Source of the DNA: a virus
Lineage: Duplodnaviria > Heunggongvirae > Uroviricota > Caudoviricetes
Virus record (IMG/VR): IMGVR_UViG_2908572912_000001
Coordinates: 1 to 34,457 of that record
Length of the DNA stretch: 34,457 bases
Direction: 5' to 3' (one strand)
Below, piece after piece: positions 21,075-32,927 of the stretch. The translations under genes were made by a program, and so were the position numbers. Under the pieces are notes generated by a model that had not been told where the DNA came from, did not search any database, and was given only the letters and a program-made list of their open reading frames with translations. How positions within the stretch are numbered: position 1 is the first letter of the stretch; every line of letters starts with the position of its first letter.

Positions 21075-21228
21075 AGTTTCACCTCATCAGGTTAACCATC
21101 ACCACCAACGACGCCAATCGACTGGTGGTGAACTGTGCAAGGTTGGCGTAACCGGCTACTCAAATCCGGCGCTCCCGAAGAAGCCCTCACACAGCCCACC
21201 ATAATTTGGGCGTAGCCGTGCTTAGCGC

Positions 21229-21252
21229 ATAAAAAAACCGCTTAACGCGGTA
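21229..21252 (-). terminator. Rho-independent terminator on the minus strand after the NACHT cassette (accgc gttaa gcggt + T7)
   Basis: 5-bp GC stem with a 7-nt T-run on the minus strand. Confidence 0.4.
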
Positions 21253-21469
21253 TGCGTTGAGTAGTATTCCGGGACGCCAATCCCGTGTGCCGATTTTGCG
21301 GCAACGCACAGAATATATCCCCAGATAAATCATGTCGTCAACCCCAGTAAATGGACACCATGATGATCACAGCCATAGCTGCTACAACAGTTACAACTAC
21401 CTCAGGCCAAAACATAACGATTTCCATATCACCTTTAGCCGCCAGACGAATAGAGACTCCCAATTCTGG

Positions 21470-21685: not shown

Positions 21686-23581
21686 TTAATTATTTTTCTT
21701 TAACTTGAAATTTCTTCCCATTGCTAGTGTTCTTCGAAGATTCGAATCATAAGCTGGTTGATAATATCTATCATAAAAATCCTTAATTGTCTGATGGTAA
21801 GTATCCAGCATCAAACCATAAAACCCCATGACCTTAAGATAATCCACCAAGGGAAATAAATAATCATCAGTCTGAACATCAGTATCAATATTATTTTTTT
21901 GTTTTTTAACTTCAAATTTGTATAAGTTTAACTCACCCTTATCCATCGTGCATGAAAAAAGGTCGTCAAAAATCAAATCAATTTTTGTCATAGGAACTCG
22001 TTCTTTTCCAGACATTATAGGTAGAATATCAATACCTAAGAGCGAACCTAATACAAAGTCGTAATGAAGCGAAATCACTGAGTCATTCGATGTCGAGTTG
22101 CCTTTGATAAATACTCTACTTAGTGCCGAGTCAAAAACATTCTCAACTCTCTCTCTCGTCATGTTTGCGACATCTACAACCCCCATATCACGAGAAGCTT
22201 TTATTGTGATTTCATCTATAAATGCTTTGGAATCTAGTGAATGTAAAAACAACATGAAGTTATCTAACTGTTCAGAGCATTTAATAGCCACCATAAGATT
22301 TTCGTATATATCTTTTTTATACTCAATCGGTAAATTTGCTACCGCAAAAGCAGCATAAAATTCTTGCACTGATTTATGCAGAAAAACATACCTATTATTT
22401 CCCTCAGGTTGGATAAGGCAAGTTATCTCAATAAGATCATCTATAAAGTTTGATGCATCTTCTTTAAGATAACCTTCTGTTTCAATAGCATCTTCAGCAT
22501 ATCTAAGCAACTCCTCTCCCCAAAACTCAAATTTCTCCTCAATCAGTGCGTTATAGCAAATAGCTGAAAAACACAATTTAGCTTTTTCACCAATAATGTT
22601 TGATTTTTTCTCGCGCGTATATACTTTTATTTTATCATGCCTTGCATATAAGGTGTCAAAGAGGCTTCGATAAAACTCTATTATATTATTTGGAATATCA
22701 TTCATATAAGGATAACAATAATACAAAAGAGTAACTAAAATTGGATTGCAAATAGTTCCCTCAAGTTCTTCTTTATCACATAGTAAATCCGCCAAGACTT
22801 TAAACGAGGCATCACTACTTGAGAATCTGTCATTTTTCGATAAAGAATGAAGAATACAAATCTTATCAGAAATATTTAGCTTATCTATAAAAATATTATA
22901 CACATCAGTAGTATAACATATATCTGTATTTGGTCTCGTTGTTGCGATAATTGGTGTGTTAAAATGATAATGAATGTTTTTTATTTCATTCATCATCATA
23001 GTTCGCTCTTCATGTTTAACCTCATCAAATCCATCCAACATTAAAACGACTCTTTGGGATTGCAGTAATATTTTCAAGCTATCCTCTGAACACCCCACAC
23101 CAAATGAATTAAGAATGTCTGCCAGATAAGCAATAATATTTGCATTCTTCACCCTTCTTAATTCAATAAAAAAAGGCATCCGTTCTGATTTTTTTATTTC
23201 CTCGCTAAACAACTTGCGTAAAATAGTACTTTTCCCTTGCCCCGCTATACCGACTATATTTACAATACCATGAAATGGTAAAGTGACCCCATCTTTTATA
23301 ACGACCTTGTCTTTATTAGATGCCACCTCAACAGTTAACGGATAATAAATATCATCTAAAAAAATATCATAATCAGCGTTGTGCAAAGTTCTCATTTTCA
23401 GAGATGGTAGCACATGCTTTCTTAAATAATTTTCTCTTCCGAGGGGATCATTTAATTGTTCGAGTATAACCTTGCCTTCATCTAGGTCCCTAGCCCAAGG
23501 TTTAGAGAGCAATACTTCTGTTATTTTTTCCGCAGCTTTTCCTACTGTGCTATTAATAATAGTCGCAAGAAACTCATCCAT
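21686..23581 (-). CDS. NACHT-family STAND NTPase (bacterial NLR-like), candidate antiphage protein; ~110-aa N-terminal region, central NACHT, ~350-aa C-terminal region
   Basis: Walker A GIAGQGKST, NACHT-type Walker B VVLMLDGFDEV, sensor-1-like IIATTRP; GC ~30 percent island. Start placed at ATG (MDEFL...) preceded by GGTGA; track alt-start gives 23638. Confidence 0.8.
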   Translation of the reverse strand: MDEFLATIINSTVGKAAEKITEVLLSKPWARDLDEGKVILEQLNDPLGRENYLRKHVLPSLKMRTLHNADYDIFLDDIYYPLTVEVASNKDKVVIKDGVTLPFHGIVNIVGIAGQGKSTILRKLFSEEIKKSERMPFFIELRRVKNANIIAYLADILNSFGVGCSEDSLKILLQSQRVVLMLDGFDEVKHEERTMMMNEIKNIHYHFNTPIIATTRPNTDICYTTDVYNIFIDKLNISDKICILHSLSKNDRFSSSDASFKVLADLLCDKEELEGTICNPILVTLLYYCYPYMNDIPNNIIEFYRSLFDTLYARHDKIKVYTREKKSNIIGEKAKLCFSAICYNALIEEKFEFWGEELLRYAEDAIETEGYLKEDASNFIDDLIEITCLIQPEGNNRYVFLHKSVQEFYAAFAVANLPIEYKKDIYENLMVAIKCSEQLDNFMLFLHSLDSKAFIDEITIKASRDMGVVDVANMTRERVENVFDSALSRVFIKGNSTSNDSVISLHYDFVLGSLLGIDILPIMSGKERVPMTKIDLIFDDLFSCTMDKGELNLYKFEVKKQKNNIDTDVQTDDYLFPLVDYLKVMGFYGLMLDTYHQTIKDFYDRYYQPAYDSNLRRTLAMGRNFKLKKNN

Positions 23582-23968
23582 TTTTTCACCACATTCATTA
23601 ACCAATACGTGGTGCATTCTTACAAGACTCAGTAACAATTGTCAATCATAGGTTTTCGCATGATTGCAAAACGCCATAAACAATTGTAGCACCATAATTT
23701 TAAACACTATAAATATACAACCTTCCTACAAGCATTCAGTACATCGCTTAATCACAGGGCTTGAATATATAGTAAGGAATCGATATTAATCACCTCATCT
23801 ACTTTAAACATCTTACACACCTATAATTTATAATAGTCAACACGAGGTCATCATATTAAACATGCAATTACAAACATTCATTTTTATATAAATTTTCATG
23901 ATTTAACCGTAGAGCGACGGTAATAAATTTCATATACAAGGATTTAAGCTCCCATACGTTTTCTATTA

Positions 23969-24148
23969 TTAAAAATAACATACCGTTCGCCAGACCTTAC
24001 CATCAATGACCAGGATTCCTGCCCGCGCCATTTTTGCCGCAGCCTGATTTATGCTGGTTAATGTCACACCTGTTGTCGCAGCAACGTCCGGCGCACAGAA
24101 GCTCTTGTGCGTCCCCAGGTAATGAATAATTGCTTCTTTTCCCGTCAT
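23969..24148 (-). pseudogene. ren: ren, 3'-truncated (about 55 Ren-like codons then 4 foreign codons and stop)
   Basis: MTGKEAIIHYLGTHKSFCAPDVAATTGVTLTSINQAAAKMARAGILVIDGKVWRTV matches the lambda Ren N-terminus; ATGA overlap with P stop; homology ends where the AT-rich island begins. Confidence 0.7.
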
Positions 24149-24786
24149 ACACTGGCTCCTTTCAGTCCGAACTTAGCTTTGATTTCTGCAATCTTCGCCA
24201 GAGCCTGTGCACGATTTAGAGGTCTACCGCCCATGACAGGAAGTTGTTTTACTGGTTCAGGTATAGCCTCACCACGGTTAATTCTCGCAGTCATATGGGC
24301 AAGTTCATCGGCAGCCTTGCGCCGTAATTCCGAGTCAGTCAACGCATTAGCCCGCATGTTCTGATACAGGTTGGTAACCAGCCAGTAGTGCGCGTTTGAT
24401 TTCCACGGATAAGACTCTGCGTCCGGATACAGGCCACGCTTCCGGCAATACTCGTAAACCATATCAACCAGCTCGCTGGCGTTTGGCAGTCCGGCGGTAA
24501 CGGATGCTTCTTCCCGGCACCAGGCGACAAACTGCCCGGGTGATGGCAGGAATGGTCGATTCTGCCGACGGGCTACGCGCATTCCTGCGTTAACCTGTTC
24601 CATTGTGGTGATCCCGTTTTCCCGGAAAGCCAGAACCCACTGGCGGCGGATTTCGTTCAGTTCGTTCTGATCCCGGTTAGCCAGGCTCGCAGGGAAAGTT
24701 GCCAGTAACTGTCTGAACACACCGTTGATGATCTGCGCTACCTGCTGTATCTGCTGGTTTAATCTTTCCACCAGTGGCTGAGACAA
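24145..24786 (-). pseudogene. P: Replication protein P with intact C-terminal ~205 residues but disrupted 5' end; no O gene present
   Basis: ...QQVAQIINGVFRQLLATFPASLANRDQNELNEIRRQWVLAFRENGITTMEQ...AKIAEIKAKFGLKGASV matches lambda P; the P-type ATGAAAA start lies 52 nt upstream in a different frame, continuous with the upstream HTH ORF. Confidence 0.8.
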
Positions 24787-24925
24787 TTTTCATTACATAG
24801 CGGGCATCAATTCCGCCACCGTGTAGCCAACGCCAAACTGTGGGTTGGGCTACACCGCATAGATCTGCCAGTCGTTTTTGACTACCTGTAATACTGATTG
24901 CGAGTTGAATGGTTTGATTTGTCAT
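24677..24925 (-). CDS. Cro-like HTH protein; the native C-terminus is uncertain because the frame runs through the P start region
   Basis: MTNQTIQLAISITGSQKRLADLCGVAQPTVWRWLHGG has a Cro/CI-type HTH; divergent from cI across an operator region. Confidence 0.5.
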   Translation of the reverse strand: MTNQTIQLAISITGSQKRLADLCGVAQPTVWRWLHGGGIDARYVMKIVSATGGKIKPADTAGSADHQRCVQTVTGNFPCEPG

Positions 24926-25035
24926 TATCAATTCCTATTGGTATTGCAATGAATAAATAATAGCAATGCGTATTAATCCAAGCAATAGCAAAACGTGTTT
25001 TGACCATCAATACGCAAGCGTATAAATTAAAACTT
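24926..25035. promoter_or_regulatory. Immunity-region divergent promoters and operators: pR candidate on minus strand (-35 TTGCTT 24980-24985, 17-bp spacer, -10 TATTAT 24957-24962); pRM candidate on plus strand (-35 TTGACC 24999-25004, -10 TATAAA 25021-25026) giving near-leaderless cI
   Basis: Consensus-like sigma70 hexamers with 16-17 bp spacing; spacers contain TAGCAAT/GCAATAGCAA and TACGCAAGCGTA motifs. Confidence 0.55.
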
Positions 25036-25728
25036 ATGAAAAAAGAAACTCTTGCTGATCGCTTAAACCTAGCGATGGAACAATCTGGAATGTCTCAAGG
25101 CGCTCTTGCAAAGGCGTCTGGCGTAGCTCAACCCACAATCTGGAGACTGACAAGCGGCAATGCGCGCGGCTCAACAAAAATTGTTGAAATAGCTAATGCA
25201 TTGGGTGTTCGAACAGAATGGCTCTCTTCAGGCATAGGCCCGATGAGAAATGACGGTCAACAATCAGGGAAGCCTGCTGTCAGCCATTCCAAATACTTCA
25301 AAATTGACGTTCTTGATATAGAAGTCAGTGCCGGGCCGGGTGTAATCAACCGTGAGTTTGTAGAAGTTCTACGCTCGGTTGAATACTCGTTTGACGATGC
25401 TCGTCACATGTTCGATGGCAGGAAGGCGGAAAATATCCGCATCATTAACGTGCGTGGTGACAGCATGTCAGGAACGATCGAACCAGGTGATCTGCTGTTC
25501 GTTGATATCACGGTTAAATCTTTCGACGGTGATGGTATCTATGCGTTTCTGTATGACGACACCGCCCATGTAAAACGCCTGCAAATGATGAAGGATAAGC
25601 TGCTGGTTATCTCTGATAACAAGAGCTACTCACCGTGGGACCCGATCGAGAAAGACGAGATGAACCGCGTGTTCATCTTCGGGAAAGTCATCGGGAGCAT
25701 GCCGCAGACATATAGAAAGCATGGGTAG
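25036..25728 (+). CDS. cI: CI-type prophage repressor (N-terminal HTH, C-terminal LexA/S24 autopeptidase-like domain)
   Basis: HTH MSQGALAKASGVAQPTIWRL; C-terminal VRGDSMSGTIEPGDLLFVD and HVKRL (Ser/Lys dyad pattern). Track alt-start at 25000. Confidence 0.85.
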   Translation: MKKETLADRLNLAMEQSGMSQGALAKASGVAQPTIWRLTSGNARGSTKIVEIANALGVRTEWLSSGIGPMRNDGQQSGKPAVSHSKYFKIDVLDIEVSAGPGVINREFVEVLRSVEYSFDDARHMFDGRKAENIRIINVRGDSMSGTIEPGDLLFVDITVKSFDGDGIYAFLYDDTAHVKRLQMMKDKLLVISDNKSYSPWDPIEKDEMNRVFIFGKVIGSMPQTYRKHG

Positions 25729-25857
25729 AAATCAGAACAAAATTATGCACTTCGCTTTTCAGCTTACTGTAGTAAGGCAATAAATTAGGCTTGACGTTAG
25801 CTATCAGGTGCACAACAATAATTGTTGAATAATAGGTTTTTTTAACTAGGTGATAAC

Positions 25858-26997
25858 ATGGCAGCGGTTGAATTTCAATTGTCTAGGAAGATGATTGATT
25901 GGATAGCAAATTCTCAAGGAGTTTCTATCGAAACTCTTGCTGACCAAGTCATGCCCAAAAAGATTAATAAATTTCTTAACGGAGTGGTAAGTAAATCCGC
26001 AGCAGAAAAACTGGCAAAAATTGGAGGAATCCCTTTCGGTTTTTTATTTCTTGAAACGCCACCAACTCCAGCCAAACCCAAGATCCCTGACTTAAGGCAA
26101 GCTATAAATAGCCGTGAGTTAGGAAAAGATTTTTTTGATGTTTACTATGATATAGAATATAAACTTGAGTGGTACAAAGACTATTTAAGAGAAAATGGTA
26201 ATGATGATCCACTCGATTTTATTGGTAAATTTAAATTTAATAGAAAATTAAATTATAAGGTTGTTGCTACAGACATAGCAAACACAATACATTTTGATAT
26301 ACAAAAAGAGATAAAAAATGTCACTTTTGAGAGCTATTTTTCTAAAGTGGCAAAACTAATAGAAGACACTGGCGTATTAGTTTTCAAGAATGGTGTTGTG
26401 GGTAATAATAATAAAAGAAAACTTGACACGCGAGAGTTTCGTGGTTTCTGTATATCTGATAGCGTTGCTCCGATCATTTTTGTAAATAGCTCGGACGCGT
26501 TATCTGCGCAGGTATTTACATTATTTCATGAGGTGGCTCATCTTTGGCTTGGAGTCGATGGAGTCTCTGGGTGGGACACAGAAAAAAACATAGAATCTTT
26601 TTGTAATAAAGTTGCTGCTGAAATCTTAATGCCTGATAATCTCTTCAAATCTTTCTGGCTTAATGCATCCAGCGATAATAATTATTATCGAGTAAAAGAG
26701 GTTTCTAAGTTATTTAAGGTTAGTGATTTCGCTTGTGCAATCAAAGCGTTACAATTAGATTTGATAGAAAGAAACACTTTGGAGATAATTAAAGATCAAG
26801 CTTACAATAAGCCCAAAAAAGAATCCAATGGTGGTTCTTTCTTTAACACATTACCTGTTCGTAACAGTCCAAAACTTACGAATATAATAATTTCCAAAGC
26901 AATGTCTCAACAATTACCATTAAGGGAAGCAGGCGTACTGCTAAATGTAAAAGCAGATACAGTTGTTGAATTTTATAAAAAACGAGAATCTCTATGA
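25858..26997 (+). CDS. HTH domain fused to ImmA/IrrE-family HExxH metallopeptidase (COG2856-like)
   Basis: HEVAHLWLG zinc-binding motif at about residue 215; N-terminal HTH-like segment; GC ~33 percent; located where rexA-rexB sit in lambda. Confidence 0.75.
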   Translation: MAAVEFQLSRKMIDWIANSQGVSIETLADQVMPKKINKFLNGVVSKSAAEKLAKIGGIPFGFLFLETPPTPAKPKIPDLRQAINSRELGKDFFDVYYDIEYKLEWYKDYLRENGNDDPLDFIGKFKFNRKLNYKVVATDIANTIHFDIQKEIKNVTFESYFSKVAKLIEDTGVLVFKNGVVGNNNKRKLDTREFRGFCISDSVAPIIFVNSSDALSAQVFTLFHEVAHLWLGVDGVSGWDTEKNIESFCNKVAAEILMPDNLFKSFWLNASSDNNYYRVKEVSKLFKVSDFACAIKALQLDLIERNTLEIIKDQAYNKPKKESNGGSFFNTLPVRNSPKLTNIIISKAMSQQLPLREAGVLLNVKADTVVEFYKKRESL

Positions 26998-27506
26998 TTC
27001 ATAATGGAAAATTCTTAATTGATAGTAATGTCTTCATAGAGGCAAAAAACTTTGCATATAACTTCAATTATTGCAAAATATTTTGGGATTTTCTTCTCGC
27101 TTTACACATTAATGGTCTGATTTATAGCATTAATGCTGTAAAAAAATAACTATGTGCAAAAGATGATCCATTGTGTAAATGGATTAAAGAAGAGTTACCA
27201 TCATCATTCTTCGAAGATGAGCATAGTTCAATAGAAAATTATGCAAAGTTAATAAATTGGTCAACTAAATTAGATGTTACCGAAAAGGCAAAGTTTGATT
27301 TTGCAAGCCATGAAAAAGCAGATGCTTTTTTAATAGCCCATGCGATGACACATGGATATACTATTATTACCCATGAGAAACCATCCGGTGGCAAACCTAA
27401 AAAAAGAATAATGATCCCGGATGCTGCTGCTTCTCACGGCGTTAAGACATTAACACTATATGAATTTCTTCCAAGATACGCTAGTCATAATTTTTCTTTG
27501 AAATAA
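26994..27506 (+). pseudogene. DUF4411-like PIN-like nuclease gene, translationally coupled (ATGA) to the ImmA gene, interrupted by an in-frame TAA at 27147-27149
   Basis: Codons 1-51 MIHNGKFLIDSNVFIEAKNF... (PIN-like Asp in LIDSN) then TAA, then the same frame continues 118 codons to 27506 (...ADAFLIAHAMTHGYTIITHEKP...). Frame verified codon by codon. Confidence 0.65.
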
Positions 27507-27511
27507 AACGT

Positions 27512-27538
27512 CCCGGCCACCGTGCCGGGTTTTCTTTT
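27512..27538 (+). terminator. Rho-independent terminator closing the cI/rex-position operon (cccggc caccgt gccggg + ttttctttt)
   Basis: Perfect 6-bp GC stem and T-run. Confidence 0.7.
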
Positions 27539-27639
27539 GCCTCCCCTCATCACACACACCGTTCAAAAAACCACCACAACCCCGCTTCAGTTATCGCTAT
27601 GCGATGCAAGTCACAAAATTAATTCTTTTTGCTATCAAA

Positions 27640-27710
27640 TATTTAATATCAAAACACATCTAGCAATAGCAATAAGTATTGATATCATCAATAGCAATAG
27701 CTATTATCAC
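27640..27710 (+). promoter_or_regulatory. pL-like promoter with operator repeats: -35 TTGATA (27679-27684), 17-bp spacer tcatcaatagcaatagc, -10 TATTAT (27702-27707); flanking CTAGCAATAGCAATAAG and CAATAGCAATAGCTATT repeats
   Basis: Near-consensus hexamers with 17-bp spacing; same GCAATAGC motif as at oR. Confidence 0.55.
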
Positions 27711-27780
27711 CATGTCGCAACAACACAACGATACGGCAATCACCTGATTCACCGTTGCGATGACCGCTTAGATCCGCAGC

Positions 27781-28191
27781 TTGAATTTCAGCAGGCTCCG
27801 GGGAGTGCGAGGGGTGAAGCGGACGCGTGAACGTCGGTGTGACCAGCTGAAATCAACTCAACACTTCATACCTCAGTCGCTTCAACGAGGCGGCTTAGTT
27901 ATGACAACCGGCGGCCATCCACCGCCTGAATACGCGCAGAAGTCTTTATATGTTCAGCAGCCCAGCTTACGGGCAGGAGTTTTTATGGTTCATCAACATT
28001 ACGGAACGCAGACCGTTAATCGCGGTGCGGTCATGCCAGGAATGCTGGTCAAACACAAAGATGGTACCTGGACTGCATCAGCTAATTTACGCGGACGGCT
28101 TTATCTGCATCGCGGCATCGAGCGCACTTATACCCGTGATTTGCTCGTAGAAGTTTTTCTCGACGGACGCGGTAACGGCCTGAATCACTAA
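27781..28191 (+). CDS. Hypothetical early-left protein; N-terminal Arg-rich stretch (RLRGVRGVKRTRERR) if the TTG start is used; alternative ATG at 27901
   Basis: First ORF after the pL-like promoter, the place of N in lambda; no similarity to lambda N beyond an Arg-rich motif. Confidence 0.35.
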   Translation: MNFSRLRGVRGVKRTRERRCDQLKSTQHFIPQSLQRGGLVMTTGGHPPPEYAQKSLYVQQPSLRAGVFMVHQHYGTQTVNRGAVMPGMLVKHKDGTWTASANLRGRLYLHRGIERTYTRDLLVEVFLDGRGNGLNH

Positions 28192-28267
28192 CCCCTCTTT
28201 CCTGTTTTCCTAATCAGCCTGGCATTTCGCGGGCGATATTTTCACAGCCATTTTCAGGAGTTCAGCC

Positions 28268-28564
28268 ATGAACGCTTATTACATTCAGGATCGTCTTGAG
28301 GCTCAGAGCTGGGCACGTCACTACCAGCAGATCGCCCGTGAAGAGAAAGAGGCAGAACTGGCAGACAACATGGAAAAAGGTCTTCCACAGCACCTGTTTG
28401 AATCACTCTGTATCGATCATTTGCAACGCTGCGGGGCCAGCAAAAAAGCCATTACCCGTGCGTTTGATGACGATGTTGAGTTTCAGGAGCGCATGGCAGA
28501 ACACATCCGGTACATGGTTGAAACCATTGCTCACCACCAGTTTGATATTGATTCAGAGGTATAA
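28268..28564 (+). CDS. gam: Gam (RecBCD inhibitor), short GamS form
   Basis: [54 protein letters not shown]... matches lambda Gam; the long-form N-terminal extension is in a different frame here. Confidence 0.9.
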
Positions 28565-28569
28565 AACGG

Positions 28570-29355
28570 ATGAGTACAGCACTCGCAACGCTGGCAGGGA
28601 AGCTGGCTGAACGTGTCGGCATGGATTCTGTCGACCCACAGGAACTGATCACCACTCTTCGCCAGACGGCATTTAAAGGTGATGCCAGCGATGCGCAGTT
28701 CATCGCATTGTTGATCGTCGCCAACCAGTACGGCCTTAATCCGTGGACGAAAGAAATTTACGCCTTCCCTGATAAGCAGAACGGCATTGTTCCGGTGGTG
28801 GGCGTTGATGGCTGGTCCCGCATCATCAATGAAAACCAGCAGTTTGATGGCATGGACTTTGAGCAGGACAATGAATCCTGTACATGCCGGATTTACCGCA
28901 AGGACCGTAATCATCCGATCTGCGTTACCGAATGGATGGATGAATGCCGCCGCGAACCATTCAAAACCCGCGAAGGCAGAGAAATCACGGGGCCGTGGCA
29001 GTCGCATCCCAAACGGATGTTACGGCATAAAGCCATGATTCAGTGTGCCCGTCTGGCCTTCGGATTTGCTGGTATCTATGACAAGGATGAAGCCGAGCGC
29101 ATTGTCGAAAATACTGCATACACTGCAGAACGTCAGCCAGAACGCGACATCACTCCGGTTAACGATGAAACCATGCAGGAGATTAACACTCTGCTGATCG
29201 CCCTGGATAAAACATGGGATGACGACTTATTGCCGCTCTGTTCCCAGATATTTCGCCGCGACATTCGCGCATCGTCAGAACTGACACAGGCCGAAGCAGT
29301 GAAAGCTCTTGGATTCCTGAAACAGAAAGCCACTGAGCAGAAGGTGGCAGCATGA
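28570..29355 (+). CDS. bet: Bet (Red-beta single-strand annealing recombinase)
   Basis: 261 aa, matches lambda Bet along its full length from memory. Confidence 0.95.
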
Positions 29356-30032
29356 CACCGGACATTATCCTGCAGCGTACCGGGATCGACGTGAGAGCTG
29401 TCGAACAGGGGGATGATGCATGGCACAAATTACGGCTCGGCGTCATCACCGCTTCAGAAGTTCACAACGTGATAGCAAAGCCCCGATCAGGAAAGAAGTG
29501 GCCTGACATGAAAATGTCCTACTTCCACACCCTGCTGGCTGAGGTTTGCACCGGTGTGGCTCTGGAAGTTAACGCTAAAGCGCTGGCCTGGGGAAAACAG
29601 TACGAGAACGACGCCAGAACCCTGTTTGAGTTCACTTCCGGCGTAAATGTTATTGAATCCCCGATCATCTATCGCGACGAAAGTATGCGCACCGCCTGCT
29701 CTCCCGATGGTTTATGCAGTGACGGCAATGGCCTTGAGCTGAAATGCCCGTTTACCTCCCGGGATTTCATGAAGTTCCGGCTCGGTGGTTTCGAGGCCAT
29801 AAAGTCGGCTTACATGGCCCAGGTGCAGTACAGCATGTGGGTGACGCGAAAAGATGCCTGGTACTTTGCCAACTATGACCCGCGTATGAAGCGTGAAGGC
29901 CTGCATTATGTCGTGGTTGAGCGGGATGAAAAGTACATGGCGAGTTTTGACGAGATGGTGCCGGAGTTCATCGAAAAAATGGACGAGGCACTGGCTGAAA
30001 TTGGTTTTGTATTTGGGGAGCAATGGCGATGA
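29352..30032 (+). CDS. exo: Exo (Red-alpha 5'-3' exonuclease)
   Basis: 226 aa, matches lambda Exo along its full length from memory. Confidence 0.95.
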
Positions 30033-30190
30033 AGCATCCTCACGATAATATCCGGGTAGGCACGATCACTTTCGTCTACTCCGTTACAAAGCGAGGCTGG
30101 ATATTTCCCGGCCTTTCTGTTATCCGAAATCCCCTGAAAGCACAGCGGCTGGCTGAGGAGATAAATAATAAACGGGGGCTGTATGACTGA
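30029..30190 (+). CDS. Small lambda-like ORF downstream of exo (53 aa, [53 protein letters not shown])
   Basis: ATGA overlap with exo stop and with the methyltransferase start; lambda carries a similar ORF here. Confidence 0.5.
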
Positions 30191-30740
30191 TTTCACCGGA
30201 AGCAATACTCCTGCCGAACATCGCGACAGCTGGCGCACACCACCAGAGATTTTTGCTGCGCTTAATGCAGAGTTCGTTTTTCAACTTGATGCTGCCGCCA
30301 GCGAAAAAAACCGACTATGTCGGCTTTTTATCTCACAGGAGCAGAACACATTAACCACTTCATGGCCTGAAGCAATGGGATATGCCTCTGGTTATGTCTG
30401 GTTGAATCCACCATACAGCAATATTTCCCCTTTTGTGAAAAAGGCAGCCACTGAAAACAAATTCAGTAGTGTGGGATGTGTAATGTTATTGCCTGCTGAC
30501 ACATCTGTCGGATGGTTTCATGAAGCGATACAAACCGCCAGTGAGGTCAGATTCATCACGGCAGGACGACTGGCATTTATTAACCCACTCACTGAGAAAC
30601 CCGTCAGTGGAAATAATAAAGGCTCGATGCTCATTATCTGGCACCCATACCCCCGTACACACTGCCACTTTACGACCGTTGATCGTGGAGAGTTGATGGC
30701 GTTCGGCTCAAGGATTCTTGCCCGTCGGGAGGCTGCATGA
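30183..30740 (+). CDS. Phage-type orphan DNA N6-adenine methyltransferase (small Dam-like, NPPY motif)
   Basis: 185 aa with motif YVWLNPPYSN (motif IV of amino-methyltransferases) and an upstream FVFQLDAAAS motif-I-like region. Confidence 0.75.
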   Translation: MTDFTGSNTPAEHRDSWRTPPEIFAALNAEFVFQLDAAASEKNRLCRLFISQEQNTLTTSWPEAMGYASGYVWLNPPYSNISPFVKKAATENKFSSVGCVMLLPADTSVGWFHEAIQTASEVRFITAGRLAFINPLTEKPVSGNNKGSMLIIWHPYPRTHCHFTTVDRGELMAFGSRILARREAA

Positions 30741-30820
30741 CAACCACTGAATGCATTTTTCTGGCAGCGGGCTTCATATTCTGTGTGCTTATGCTTGCCG
30801 ACATGGGACTTGTTCAATGA
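30737..30820 (+). CDS. Possible 27-aa hydrophobic peptide (MTTTECIFLAAGFIFCVLMLADMGLVQ), overlapping neighbours by ATGA at both ends
   Basis: Hand translation; single predicted TM helix; coding status unproven. Confidence 0.3.
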   Translation: MTTTECIFLAAGFIFCVLMLADMGLVQ

Positions 30821-31032
30821 CACCTCAGCAAGAAAACGCCCTTCGCAGTATTGCCCGTCAGGCTAATTCTGAAATCAAAAAAGCCAGACAGCAGTTTCCG
30901 GATAAAAACGTCGATGACATTTGCCGTAGCGTACTGAAGAAGCACCGCGAAACGGTAACGCTGATGGGATTCACACCGACTCACTTAAGTCTGGCAATCG
31001 GCATGTTAAACGGCGTCTTTAAGGAACGGTGA
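30817..31032 (+). CDS. Hypothetical protein (71 aa)
   Basis: ORF with ATGA coupling; track alt-start at 30751. Confidence 0.45.
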   Translation: MTPQQENALRSIARQANSEIKKARQQFPDKNVDDICRSVLKKHRETVTLMGFTPTHLSLAIGMLNGVFKER

Positions 31033-31052
31033 ACATGAAAAGCAAAATCATC

Positions 31053-31078
31053 AGGGAGCTACAGGCTCCTTTTTTATT
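31053..31078 (+). terminator. Rho-independent terminator (ggagc tacag gctcc + ttttttatt)
   Basis: GC stem and T-run. Confidence 0.5.
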
Positions 31079-31130
31079 ATTCGCATTCACCCTCAAGCGT
31101 ATTAACCAACAATTCAGGGATTAATGGAAG

Positions 31131-31349
31131 ATGGCAGACATCATTGATTCAGCATCAGAAATCGAAGAATTACAGCGCAATACAGCAATAAAAATGCGTC
31201 GTCTGAACTACCAGACTGTATCTGCCACTCATTGTTGTGAGTGTGGCGATCCGATAGATGAGCGAAGACGCCTGGTCGTTCAGGGTTGTCGGACTTGTGC
31301 AAGTTGCCAGGAGGAGATCGAACTTAAGAACAAACAATGGGGATTGTGA
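31131..31349 (+). CDS. TraR/DksA-family C4 zinc-finger protein
   Basis: 72 aa with CxxC...(17)...CxxC (CCECGDPIDERRRLVVQGCRTCASC). Confidence 0.75.
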   Translation: MADIIDSASEIEELQRNTAIKMRRLNYQTVSATHCCECGDPIDERRRLVVQGCRTCASCQEEIELKNKQWGL

Positions 31350-31396
31350 TGGCCTCAAAGCAGCAAATTTCAACATCGTCCAACTGAGGTGTAAAA

Positions 31397-31636
31397 ATGT
31401 TCAGAATCATTTTTCCTAACACCTGGTACGTCGACCACCACGGCACTCCCTGCAAAATCCTGCGTTCTACCCACAACAAAGTTCACTACATCCGAAAAGG
31501 CAGAACATGTATCGCCAGCATGTTCCGCTTTAATCATGACTTTGAACCTGTGAATAAAGCTGATGCAGATCGAATAGCAGAAGAGATCGAAACGGCAGAA
31601 CACATTAAGAAGTTACGTGCCATACGCAGAAAATAG
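31397..31636 (+). CDS. Hypothetical phage protein (79 aa)
   Basis: ORF only. Confidence 0.45.
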   Translation: MFRIIFPNTWYVDHHGTPCKILRSTHNKVHYIRKGRTCIASMFRFNHDFEPVNKADADRIAEEIETAEHIKKLRAIRRK

Positions 31637-31713
31637 AAAAATTGATAAATTCAATACTGCATTTCTCAGCATGAACCGCCCCGGGTTTCCTGGAGAGTGT
31701 TTTATCTGTGAAC

Positions 31714-32604
31714 TCAGGCTGCCAGATCATCGTTTCCGATGGAAGCATAATAAGCTTTTTCTGCTTCTGCCGGAGGAGTATGGCCCAGCCTTTCCAGCAA
31801 TCGTCGATTGTTATACCAGTCCACCCACGTGAGTGTGGCCAGTTCCACTTCTGCACGGTTTTTCCAGCTCTTACGGTGTATTACCTCCGCTTTGTAAAGG
31901 CCATTGATGCTCTCCGCCATCGCGTTGTCATACGAGTCGCCTGTACTTCCTGTTGATGCCAGTAATCCGGCTTCCTTAAGCCGCTGTGTGTAGGCCAGCG
32001 ATACATACTGAGAACCTTTATCACTGTGATGGACTGTGCCGGACGGTCGACGGGCCCATAACGCCTGCTCCAGAGCATCCAGCACAAATGTCGTTTCCAT
32101 AGACGATGAGACCCGCCACCCCACGATGTATCCGGCAAACACATCAATGATGAACGCCACATAGACGACCCCCTGCCATGTGCTGACGTAAGTAAAATCA
32201 GCCACCCACAACTGGTCAGGACGTTCTGCCACGAACTGACGGTTTACGCGGTCGCCTGCGACAACGGCTTTCCGGCTGATGGTCGTACGGACCTTTTTAC
32301 CCCGGAGAACACCGGCAAGTCCCATAACCGCCATGAGACGTGCCACAGTGCATCTGGCCACTCTGATACCTTCCCGTAACAACTGACGCCAGACTTTACG
32401 CACACCGTATACCTTGTGATTTTCATCGTATACGCGCTGTATCTCTTTCTTCAGCCAGTCATCGCGCTGCGCACGGGCACTGCGTTTATCCGGATGATGT
32501 CGCTGTTGCTGACAGTGGTAATACGTTGACGGGGCAATATGCAGTTCGCTGCATAGCGGTCCGACCCCGTACTGCTCACGCAGCTTATCCAGCAGTGGCA
32601 TCAT
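31714..32604 (-). CDS. IS629-like transposase OrfB (DDE)
   Basis: 296 aa with DDE integrase-core motifs ([19 protein letters not shown]). Confidence 0.9.
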
Positions 32605-32927
32605 TTTTTCCAGAGGCGGTCGAACTCCGCCTTCGCAAAATAAGCGGAAGCCTGGCGAAGGATATCGTTACTGCGGCGCAGTTCACGATTTTCACGTTCC
32701 AGCTCTTTCAGACGCTGACGTTCAGCGGTGGTGAGCCCGCCATCACCGCCTCCGGTATCCCGCTCATGCTGGCGTACCCAGACACGCAGAGTCTCCGGTG
32801 TACAGCCAATCTTTGGGGCAATGGAACAAATTGCCGCCCACTGTGAGTCATATTCGCCCTGACTTTCCAGAACCATACGAATCGCCCTCTGACGGACTTC
32901 GGGGGAAAAACGAGTATTTTTAGTCAT
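32601..32927 (-). CDS. IS629-like transposase OrfA
   Basis: [57 protein letters not shown]... as remembered for IS629/IS1203 OrfA. Confidence 0.9.

Follow-up and report, generated by a model that had tools for sequence, protein, structure and literature searches.

Which DNA sites does the repressor of this prophage recognize, and what are the short words repeated around its early promoters? The DNA in question is a 34,457-nucleotide stretch from a tailed phage (Caudoviricetes; IMG/VR record IMGVR_UViG_2908572912_000001, positions 1 to 34,457), referred to at its full length as the window. The immunity and early region of a lambdoid prophage occupies its segment from 24.1 to 30 kb, in an orientation reversed relative to the usual lambda map: a truncated cro gene is read leftward from pR and cI rightward from pRM, with the right operator (OR) between them; cI is followed by cargo genes and a terminator, and then by the left operator (OL) and pL, which reads into kil-gam-bet. 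An earlier note on positions 24926-27710, a span that reaches from the right operator to the left, had proposed that all three promoters have near-consensus hexamers, that their spacers carry repeats of TAGCAAT and a second word, GCAATAGC, three or more on each side, and that these repeats define the probable operator of the repressor. Our analysis leads us to conclude that the words are very probably the halves of 18-bp palindromic operators, bound by CI and also by Cro, which control the early promoters in a lambda-type switch.

An 18-bp dyad at the early promoters

Over the window as a whole, TAGCAAT is not enriched (9 copies versus 7.2 expected), and GCAATAGC occurs five times versus 1.6 expected, a count reached in 3 of 100 shuffles. 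Four of the nine copies of TAGCAAT (at 24961, 27661, 27667 and 27692) and three of the five of GCAATAGC (at 24982, 27663 and 27694) lie inside two control regions of about 100 bp each. The repeats reported by the earlier note were partly confirmed. At pL there are indeed three or more exact words; at OR each word has a single exact copy, and the number is reached only if the one-mismatch forms TTGCAAT, AAGCAAT and TAGCAAA are admitted. The words occupy the spacer/-10 regions of pL and pR, but not the pRM spacer, which holds the variant CAATACGCAAGCGTATAA. Near-consensus hexamers were recovered by a promoter scan at pL and pRM, but not at pR, which has 8/12 consensus matches plus an extended -10 TG. 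Among relatives, the TTG and TATTAT of pR are conserved and the last three bases of its -35 vary. Two other placements of pR, with a -35 of TTGCTA at 24989-84 or 24966-61, were rejected, as neither yields an acceptable -10.

Each site in the two regions is an 18-bp near-palindrome, with the consensus YAATAScnA-TngSTATTR; the half-site, Y-A-A-T-A-S-c-n-A, was derived from 96 arms of distinct related sites. From the AATAS block of one arm to that of the other is roughly one helical turn, the distance that would suit a dimer of a helix-turn-helix (HTH) protein. The motif highlighted in the earlier note, GCAATAGCAAT, consists of one spacer base and the best half-site, CAATAGCAA. This is a refinement of the original proposal: the 7-8-mers represent one arm only, and the recognition unit would be the 18-bp dyad.

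The dyad pattern AATASNNNNNNSTATT (AATASN6STATT) has three exact matches in 34 kb, all of them in OR or OL. When up to one mismatch was allowed there were 12 matches versus 4.6 expected, a number reached in none of 100 shuffles, and half of the 12 sit in the two control regions, which make up 0.6% of the window. This clustering is far beyond chance. We also built a symmetrised position weight matrix (PWM), trained on the five window sites OR1-3 and OL1-2 (Table 1). Its best score outside the immunity region was 12.0 bits, and the maximum in simulated windows averaged 12.4 ± 1.5 bits.

Could the words simply be a by-product of A+T-rich promoter DNA and chance? The absence of window-wide enrichment of TAGCAAT would fit this explanation, as would the frequency of promoter-like hexamers, which are equally common in shuffled sequence (12 in the window versus 10.6 expected). 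It does not account, however, for the concentration of matches in so small a part of the window, for the constant spacing of 25 bp, for the conservation of arms and variability of spacers across six genera, or for the lack of such sites in equally A+T-rich OR regions of relatives with another DNA-binding domain (see below). These comparisons suggest that the chance explanation is effectively refuted.

Within each cluster the sites are 25 bp apart, start to start (OR1-3; OL1-2). The left cluster spans 27664-27707, 2731 bp from OR1, and a repeat search found it as two 17-nt copies 25 bp apart, a direct repeat, and recovered dyad relations at OR. Read in the orientation of pR and pL, the last three bases of OR2 and OL2 are the TTG that begins the -35, and OR1 and OL1 extend over the first five bases of the -10 TATTAT; neighbouring sites are separated by 7 bp. 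Three tandem pseudo-palindromic operators thus overlap pR and pRM, and a second operator cluster lies on pL beyond cI, as in a lambda-type switch. The -10 of the predicted pRM is separated from the cI ATG by 7 nt, and there is no Shine-Dalgarno sequence; the distance is constant in relatives though its bases vary; the cI mRNA appears to be leaderless or nearly so, judging from the predicted start. The placement of the sites equals the arrangement of OR and OL in lambda, leaderless cI included.

The individual sites differ in how they vary. OR1 changes among relatives at central positions 10-11 only. OR2 has one good and one poor arm and is nearly invariant across 195 related sequences, and OR3 has just 3 distinct variants among the 92 related sequences compared. 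At OL, a remnant of a third site precedes OL2, and a full OL3 stands at the same offset in Klebsiella and Raoultella relatives (TAATAGCCATTGCTATCA, 17.2 bits; TAATGCTAATTGCTATTA, 15.0 bits). In the window, the remnant and a further segment at 27620-37 score at most 8.5 bits; because this is below the noise level of the matrix, we did not call them operators.

Table 1. Features of the immunity region, in window coordinates
Feature	Position	Strand	Description	Evidence
Remains of replication gene P	24145-24786	minus		
cro-like gene	24677..24925	minus	YdaS-type HTH; truncated past residue 59; in-frame fusion to P remains	Pfam YdaS_toxin 45.5 bits; weak P22_Cro
O4, candidate fourth right-operator site	24929-24946		CAATTCCTATTGGTATTG; over cro Shine-Dalgarno, about +5 to +22 of predicted pR transcript	
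pR	-35 24985-24980; -10 24962-24957	minus	TTGCTT, 17-nt spacer, TATTAT; extended -10 TG	predicted; read from sequence
OR1	24958-24975		TAATAGCAATGCGTATTA; pR spacer and five bases of -10	PWM 21.0 bits; exact AATASN6STATT match
OR2	24983-25000		CAATAGCAAAACGTGTTT; overlaps TTG of pR -35, abuts pRM -35	PWM 15.6 bits
pRM	25000-25028	plus	TTGACC-17-TAAATT	predicted; promoter scan, 9/12 matches
OR3	25008-25025		CAATACGCAAGCGTATAA; within pRM spacer and -10	PWM 16.7 bits
cI repressor gene	25036..25728	plus	230 aa; 434-like HTH N-terminal domain, S24 self-cleaving C-terminal domain	Pfam
Cargo genes	25858..27506	plus	rexAB-like slot, same orientation as cI	Pfam
ImmA/IrrE metallopeptidase (cargo)	25858-26997	plus		Pfam; PADLOC capP/RmrA-like matches
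DUF4411 gene (cargo)	26994-27506	plus	PIN-like; broken by nonsense change at 27147	Pfam
Terminator-like hairpin	27512..27529	plus	GC hairpin with T run; closes cI-cargo operon ahead of OL	terminator scan
Conserved block upstream of OL	27616-27645		AAATTAATTCTTTTTGCTATCAAATATTTA; AAATnAATTCnTTTnGCTATCAA(nnnnTTA)	
OL3 remnant	27644-27661		TAATATCAAAACACATCT; left arm alone intact; 20 bp before OL2	
OL2	27664-27681		CAATAGCAATAAGTATTG; last three bases TTG begin pL -35	PWM 20.0 bits; exact dyad match
pL	27679-27707	plus	TTGATA-17-TATTAT; toward kil-gam-bet-exo	promoter scan, 10/12 matches
OL1	27689-27706		CAATAGCAATAGCTATTA; pL spacer and five bases of -10	PWM 21.5 bits, best in window; exact dyad match

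Probable operators and DNA-binding domains among relatives

If these sites are the operators of this repressor, they should accompany it. The immunity region is 95-97% identical to those of the cultured phages PhiR70_1/R30_1/R68_2, Lambda_4C10, 4A7, 1W/3W/D2 and Perceval; CI is 82-86% identical in Salmonella ST104/SE1/ST160 and Klebsiella phages, and GTDB genomes contributed relatives from Kluyvera, Citrobacter and Raoultella. The HTH sequence MSQGALAKASG(V/I)AQPTIWRL(T/V)SG is found in the CI of the window and in 193 of the 197 related sequences with an aligned CI N-terminus, with a variant in one more. Wherever CI carries the HTH GVAQPTIWRLTSG, sites are present at -78, -53 and -28 relative to the cI ATG, as seen in Perceval, PhiR70_1, two Klebsiella phages, Salmonella ST104 and Kluyvera, Citrobacter and Raoultella prophages, all of which lie outside the training set of the matrix. 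The same loci have two or three further sites on the downstream pL-like promoter; these differ in sequence but follow the same consensus. We scanned 195 sequences that encode this HTH, 1.61 Mb in total, which come from E. coli, Klebsiella, Salmonella, Kluyvera, Citrobacter and Raoultella. Matches of at least 14.5 bits numbered 724 in OR, 495 in OL and 3 elsewhere. The earlier note had named, as an outcome that would count against it, the absence of the motif from immunity regions with the same repressor; we found the motif retained in all 195.

The distance from cI to OL changes with the cargo. An OL pair lies 1351-2698 bp from the cI ATG in 75 of the 80 IMG/VR contigs with identical CI, and only four of the 75 depart from the 25-bp spacing; cI and the pair keep together, whatever the cargo between them. 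In two IMG/VR contigs (L074 and L078) the spacer from OL2 to OL1 contains a run of C, CCCCCCCC or CCCCCCCCC, which extends the spacing from 25 to 28-29 bp; the run may be a sequencing artefact or a natural variant in spacing.

Conversely, we looked at five relatives with a similar CI C-terminal domain but a different DNA-binding domain: K. grimontii L011, PhiR5_1 (L013), ST15-VIM1phi2.1 (L014), HK639 (L015) and HK022 (L200). None of these five loci has a PWM match of at least 14.5 bits; they bear different palindromes, for example ACAACCnnGGTTGT and ATAACCnnnGTTAT. The recognition helix of Cro co-varies with that of CI, in the same classes. In class A, to which the window belongs, the helices are AQPTIWRLTSG in CI and AQPTVWRWLHG in Cro, with the common core QPT(I/V)WR; in class B they are SQAAIQKIETG and SQQAVYKWLHN, and in class D SQPAIQKMTSG and SQPAVHKWLNG.

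This co-variation bears on whether the sites might serve one regulator only, either Cro or a third protein such as a YdaT/CII-like factor or a host protein, with CI recognizing something else. The assignment of the sites to CI is made from sequence; there are extra conserved elements near both operators (O4 and the block upstream of OL, discussed below); and in CP-933P, where the footprints of PaaR2 and YdaS overlap, exactly which sequence each protein binds has not been settled (PMC8630535). Yet the sites co-vary with the N-terminal domain of CI as well as with Cro, and the helix core is common to both proteins. Moreover, this prophage has lost ydaT/cII and an intact cro while keeping the sites and an intact cI, and the published YdaT site, TTGATTN6AATCAA, is unlike those described here (PMC9986795). 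We consider a single-regulator explanation improbable.

The relatives also distinguish the dyad from a direct repeat of 7-11 nt, GCAATAGCAAT, bound head to tail. CAATAG recurs with a 6-nt period inside OL1 and OL2, where overlapping PWM matches are offset by 6 nt, and OR2 has a single good arm, all of which a direct repeat would explain. However, the strong arm CAATAGCAA is not fixed to one strand among relatives: it is on the opposite strand in the OL1 of Klebsiella, Kluyvera and Salmonella relatives (for example TAATACTCATTGCTATTA in Klebsiella), implying a dyad rather than a direct repeat. OR3, moreover, lacks the word yet is the most conserved site. Finally, CI is homologous to the 434 repressor by phmmer, and both that repressor and those combining HTH and S24 domains bind dyads as dimers. 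Head-to-tail recognition is thus highly unlikely, and we return to the 18-bp dyad.

Variation among 36 distinct OR sequences is consistent with dyad operators: it averages 0.21 in the OR1-OR2 spacer and 0.17 in the flank 24947-56, compared with 0.005-0.02 in the arms, and the centre of OR1 is also among the variable positions.

Several observations nevertheless weigh against reading these sites as the operators of a lambda-type switch. pR is weak by consensus and was missed by the promoter scan, and OL in the window has two full sites only. The matrix is circular for its five training sites, so that support has to come from the relatives; many of these are near-identical, and independent observations are fewer than the counts suggest. 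OR2, OR3 and pRM are near-invariant as one block, in which conservation cannot separate constraint on the operator from constraint on the promoter. The literature searched holds no binding, footprint, chromatin immunoprecipitation or transcription-start data for this repressor. On the other side, the sites, their spacing, their overlap with promoters, their exclusive location and their co-variation with the DNA-binding domains of both CI and Cro are computed directly. Location, relatives with the same HTH and relatives with another HTH all agree, and the interpretation of the motif as the probable operator of this repressor is supported by these comparisons.

How would such a switch work? The N-terminal domain of CI is homologous to the 434 repressor (phmmer E 1.6e-5 to 2.1e-5 to 1sq8/2r63, residues 6-66 aligned), and Pfam identifies HTH_3 (28.3 bits; cutoff 23) and Peptidase_S24 (67 bits). 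The closest match to Cro is Xylella Cro, 3bd1. By homology to lambda, 434 and CP-933P, we infer binding, cooperativity, an order of occupancy, activation of pRM, looping between OR and OL and a leaderless cI start. CI dimers would bind through the 434-like domain and its recognition helix AQPTIWRLTSG, filling OR1 with OR2 and OL1 with OL2 cooperatively. Spaced at 25 bp, these pairs overlap with the -10 and -35 of pR and pL, and their occupancy would shut both promoters and turn off early lytic transcription. Occupancy of OR2 would probably depend on OR1, since the second arm of OR2 is poor. As OR2 abuts the pRM -35, CI bound there would activate pRM, and since OR3 lies inside pRM, CI at high concentration would repress its own promoter from that site. 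Cro should use the same sites, because its recognition helix is near-identical. Induction would follow from RecA-stimulated self-cleavage of CI at Ala99-Gly100, for which the motifs were located, including the catalytic Ser143 (in GDSM) and Lys180 (in HVKRL).

Extra conserved elements and neighbouring genes

Is the right operator limited to three sites? A further dyad, O4, covers the cro Shine-Dalgarno sequence in the 110-bp control region between the divergent cro and cI genes. It scores 17.8 bits although it is outside the training set, and lies 28-29 bp from OR1, rather than 25. Among 80 distinct OR sequences, conservation is seen in its arms and variation in its centre triplet (TTG, TAA, TGA, AAA), beside a hypervariable 10-bp flank at 24947-56. 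Conservation of the site extends to E. coli, Klebsiella and Kluyvera relatives; in Salmonella ST104 it is weaker (TTATTCCCTTTCGTATAA). The evidence is weakened by the double role of the left arm, which also serves as the Shine-Dalgarno sequence; for the GTATTG arm, no other cause of conservation is evident. O4 is therefore best described as a probable fourth operator site. There is a precedent in CP-933P, whose OR has four footprinted 18-bp palindromes (PMC8630535).

The block upstream of OL lies in an A+T-rich control region (27616-27710). In a comparison of 112 distinct OL sequences from several genera it matches OL1 and OL2 in conservation, despite differing flanking cargo. It resembles a site for integration host factor (IHF), with an A/T tract followed by TATCAANNNNTTA at 27633-45 (WATCAANNNNTTR); a comparable IHF pattern exists upstream of lambda pL and at attP H'. 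Alternatively it could be a weak outlying operator at 27620-37 (8.5 bits), and it also resembles the O4 arm pattern, AATTC-N6-sTAT. By sequence, then, it looks like either an IHF site or a weak outlying operator. That O4 makes the right operator of this widespread immunity type a four-site rather than a three-site switch, and that together with this block it gives CI, Cro or both a further form of control that lambda lacks (such as a roadblock, a looping anchor or Cro autoregulation), is a tentative suggestion that we consider less likely than not.

The prophage itself is damaged. By blastn, it lacks 1724 bp that are present in an intact E. coli prophage (L006, Tig228; 99.4% identical), corresponding to L006 1656-3379; the junction is at about 24748-24754, with a 7-bp overlap. 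The deletion takes the 3' end of cro, ydaT/cII, O and the 5' end of P, leaving an in-frame cro'-'P fusion. In addition, a G-to-T change at 27147 (GAA to TAA, E52*) interrupts the DUF4411 gene, which is intact in L006. The element is thus predicted to be replication-defective but, because cI and all operators are intact, it should still confer immunity.

Phages with the same CI do not all have the same genes in the slot from cI to OL: ImmA/IrrE and DUF4411 here, and HipA-like, Gev-like, transmembrane or ParA-like proteins elsewhere (L001, L004, L013 and others). This variety of cargo, with OL 1.35-2.7 kb from cI, marks the slot as a cargo and defence hotspot. A PADLOC search gave no match for DUF4411 or for a NACHT-domain NTPase of 650 aa (21686-23638, minus strand; Pfam NACHT 43.9 bits) that adjoins the ren/P region and is possibly a defence gene. 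Rfam matches in the window were C4 antisense RNA (21121-21206), the Hfq-binding small RNA isrK (21231-21303) and an ALIL pseudoknot, an IS3-family frameshift element (32530-32646), all on the minus strand.

Downstream of pL are a kil-like open reading frame (ORF) and then gam, bet and exo; Gam was identified by Pfam, and Kil and Bet from the annotation of homologues. Between pL and the kil-like ORF (27708-27900) there is no N-like antiterminator gene. A long ORF at 27781-28191 opens with an arginine-rich stretch, RLRGVRGVKRTRERR. In the relative HK639, an RNA at the matching position is annotated as a putL-like antiterminator; in the window, Rfam found nothing between pL and kil, and the predicted fold of 27714-27900 is no better than that of shuffled sequences (z = -0.5).

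Significance and comparison with known systems

This type of CI is very common. The identical protein is encoded on more than 1000 contigs; 508 IMG/VR contigs have a gene for a CI relative, the protein being identical in the best 80, and the type includes Perceval, from the Crohn's-associated strain LF82, 4A7 and the Salmonella ST104/SE1 group. The ST104 repressor has been listed as its own specificity type, with no sites given (Villafane 2008; PMC2629481), and the work on the LF82 prophages shows that Perceval CI is expressed, with no discussion of operators (PMC9928086). No published operator map for this repressor was found in the ST104/SE1/ST160, Perceval/LF82 and YdaS/YdaT literature, a search that did not extend to subscription-only papers such as the original ST104 description. 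Six operator words of 11-15 nt matched only unrelated primers in paper texts, and the GenBank records examined for this immunity type have no operator annotation. In the literature searched we thus found no description of the operators of this common immunity type, although the kind of system is textbook and adds nothing conceptually to the lambda paradigm. With a defined consensus, homo- and hetero-immunity among these prophages could be predicted from sequence, and the boundaries of the cI-to-OL slot, where defence genes swap, could be marked; it would also provide one more orthogonal repressor/operator pair for synthetic circuits.

The lambda switch has the same divergent cI and cro, three tandem OR operators with a pL cluster about 2.7 kb away, a pRM flanked by OR2 and covered by OR3, an apparently leaderless cI, an S24 self-cleavage domain and cargo genes downstream of cI. 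It differs in its operator, which is 17 bp, compared with an even dyad of 18 bp here, and in its unrelated half-site (TATCACCGC in lambda; YAATAScnA here). In addition, the system described here has a 434/XRE-like CI N-terminal domain, an all-alpha Cro of the YdaS type, a YdaT-like gene at the position of CII in intact relatives, two full OL sites and a probable extra site over the cro ribosome-binding site.

The PaaR2/YdaS/YdaT system of CP-933P, from E. coli O157:H7, is likewise a lambdoid immunity region and shares the YdaS-type Cro, the YdaT-type CII and 18-bp palindromes; its repressor gene is leaderless, as cI appears to be here, and OL sites lie on a PL-like promoter (PMC8630535). There, binding was demonstrated by electrophoretic mobility shift assay and footprinting. 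PaaR2, however, is not an S24 CI, its half-site is GTTTAGTAA, and its four palindromes are equally spaced, in contrast to intervals of 25, 25 and 29 bp here (PMC8630535); nor is there a toxin-antitoxin pair downstream of the repressor in our prophage. With 434, this system shares a homologous N-terminal domain of about 60 residues and operators with conserved outer and variable central bases, but the 434 operator is 14 bp (ACAA-N6-TTGT) and its helix reads QQSIEQL, rather than QPTIWRL.

HK022 is related in the C-terminal domain of CI, which is responsible for oligomerisation and cleavage, and the ST104 record labels its CI 'similar to HK022 cI'. We considered HK022 immunity and rejected it: the two CI proteins are 40% identical, with N-terminal domains unrelated in sequence, and the PWM maximum in HK022 24000-32000 is 10.1 bits. 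Such an unrelated N-terminus, with no match of at least 14.5 bits, points to a different immunity specificity.

The same immunity type is instead found in Perceval (E. coli LF82), 4A7, Lambda_4C10, 1W/3W/D2, PhiR30_1/R68_2/R70_1, ST104, SE1, ST160 and Klebsiella ST11-VIM1phi8.2. These phages have a CI 82-100% identical to that of the window, an identical or nearly identical HTH, the same OR1-3 offsets and the same OL consensus. They differ in the cargo between cI and OL; the Salmonella members are P22-like, with an N-like gene 24, and the Klebsiella and Raoultella relatives retain a full OL3. In both its recognition helix and its operator set, with OR1-3 near-identical, the window belongs with the ST104/SE1/Perceval type.

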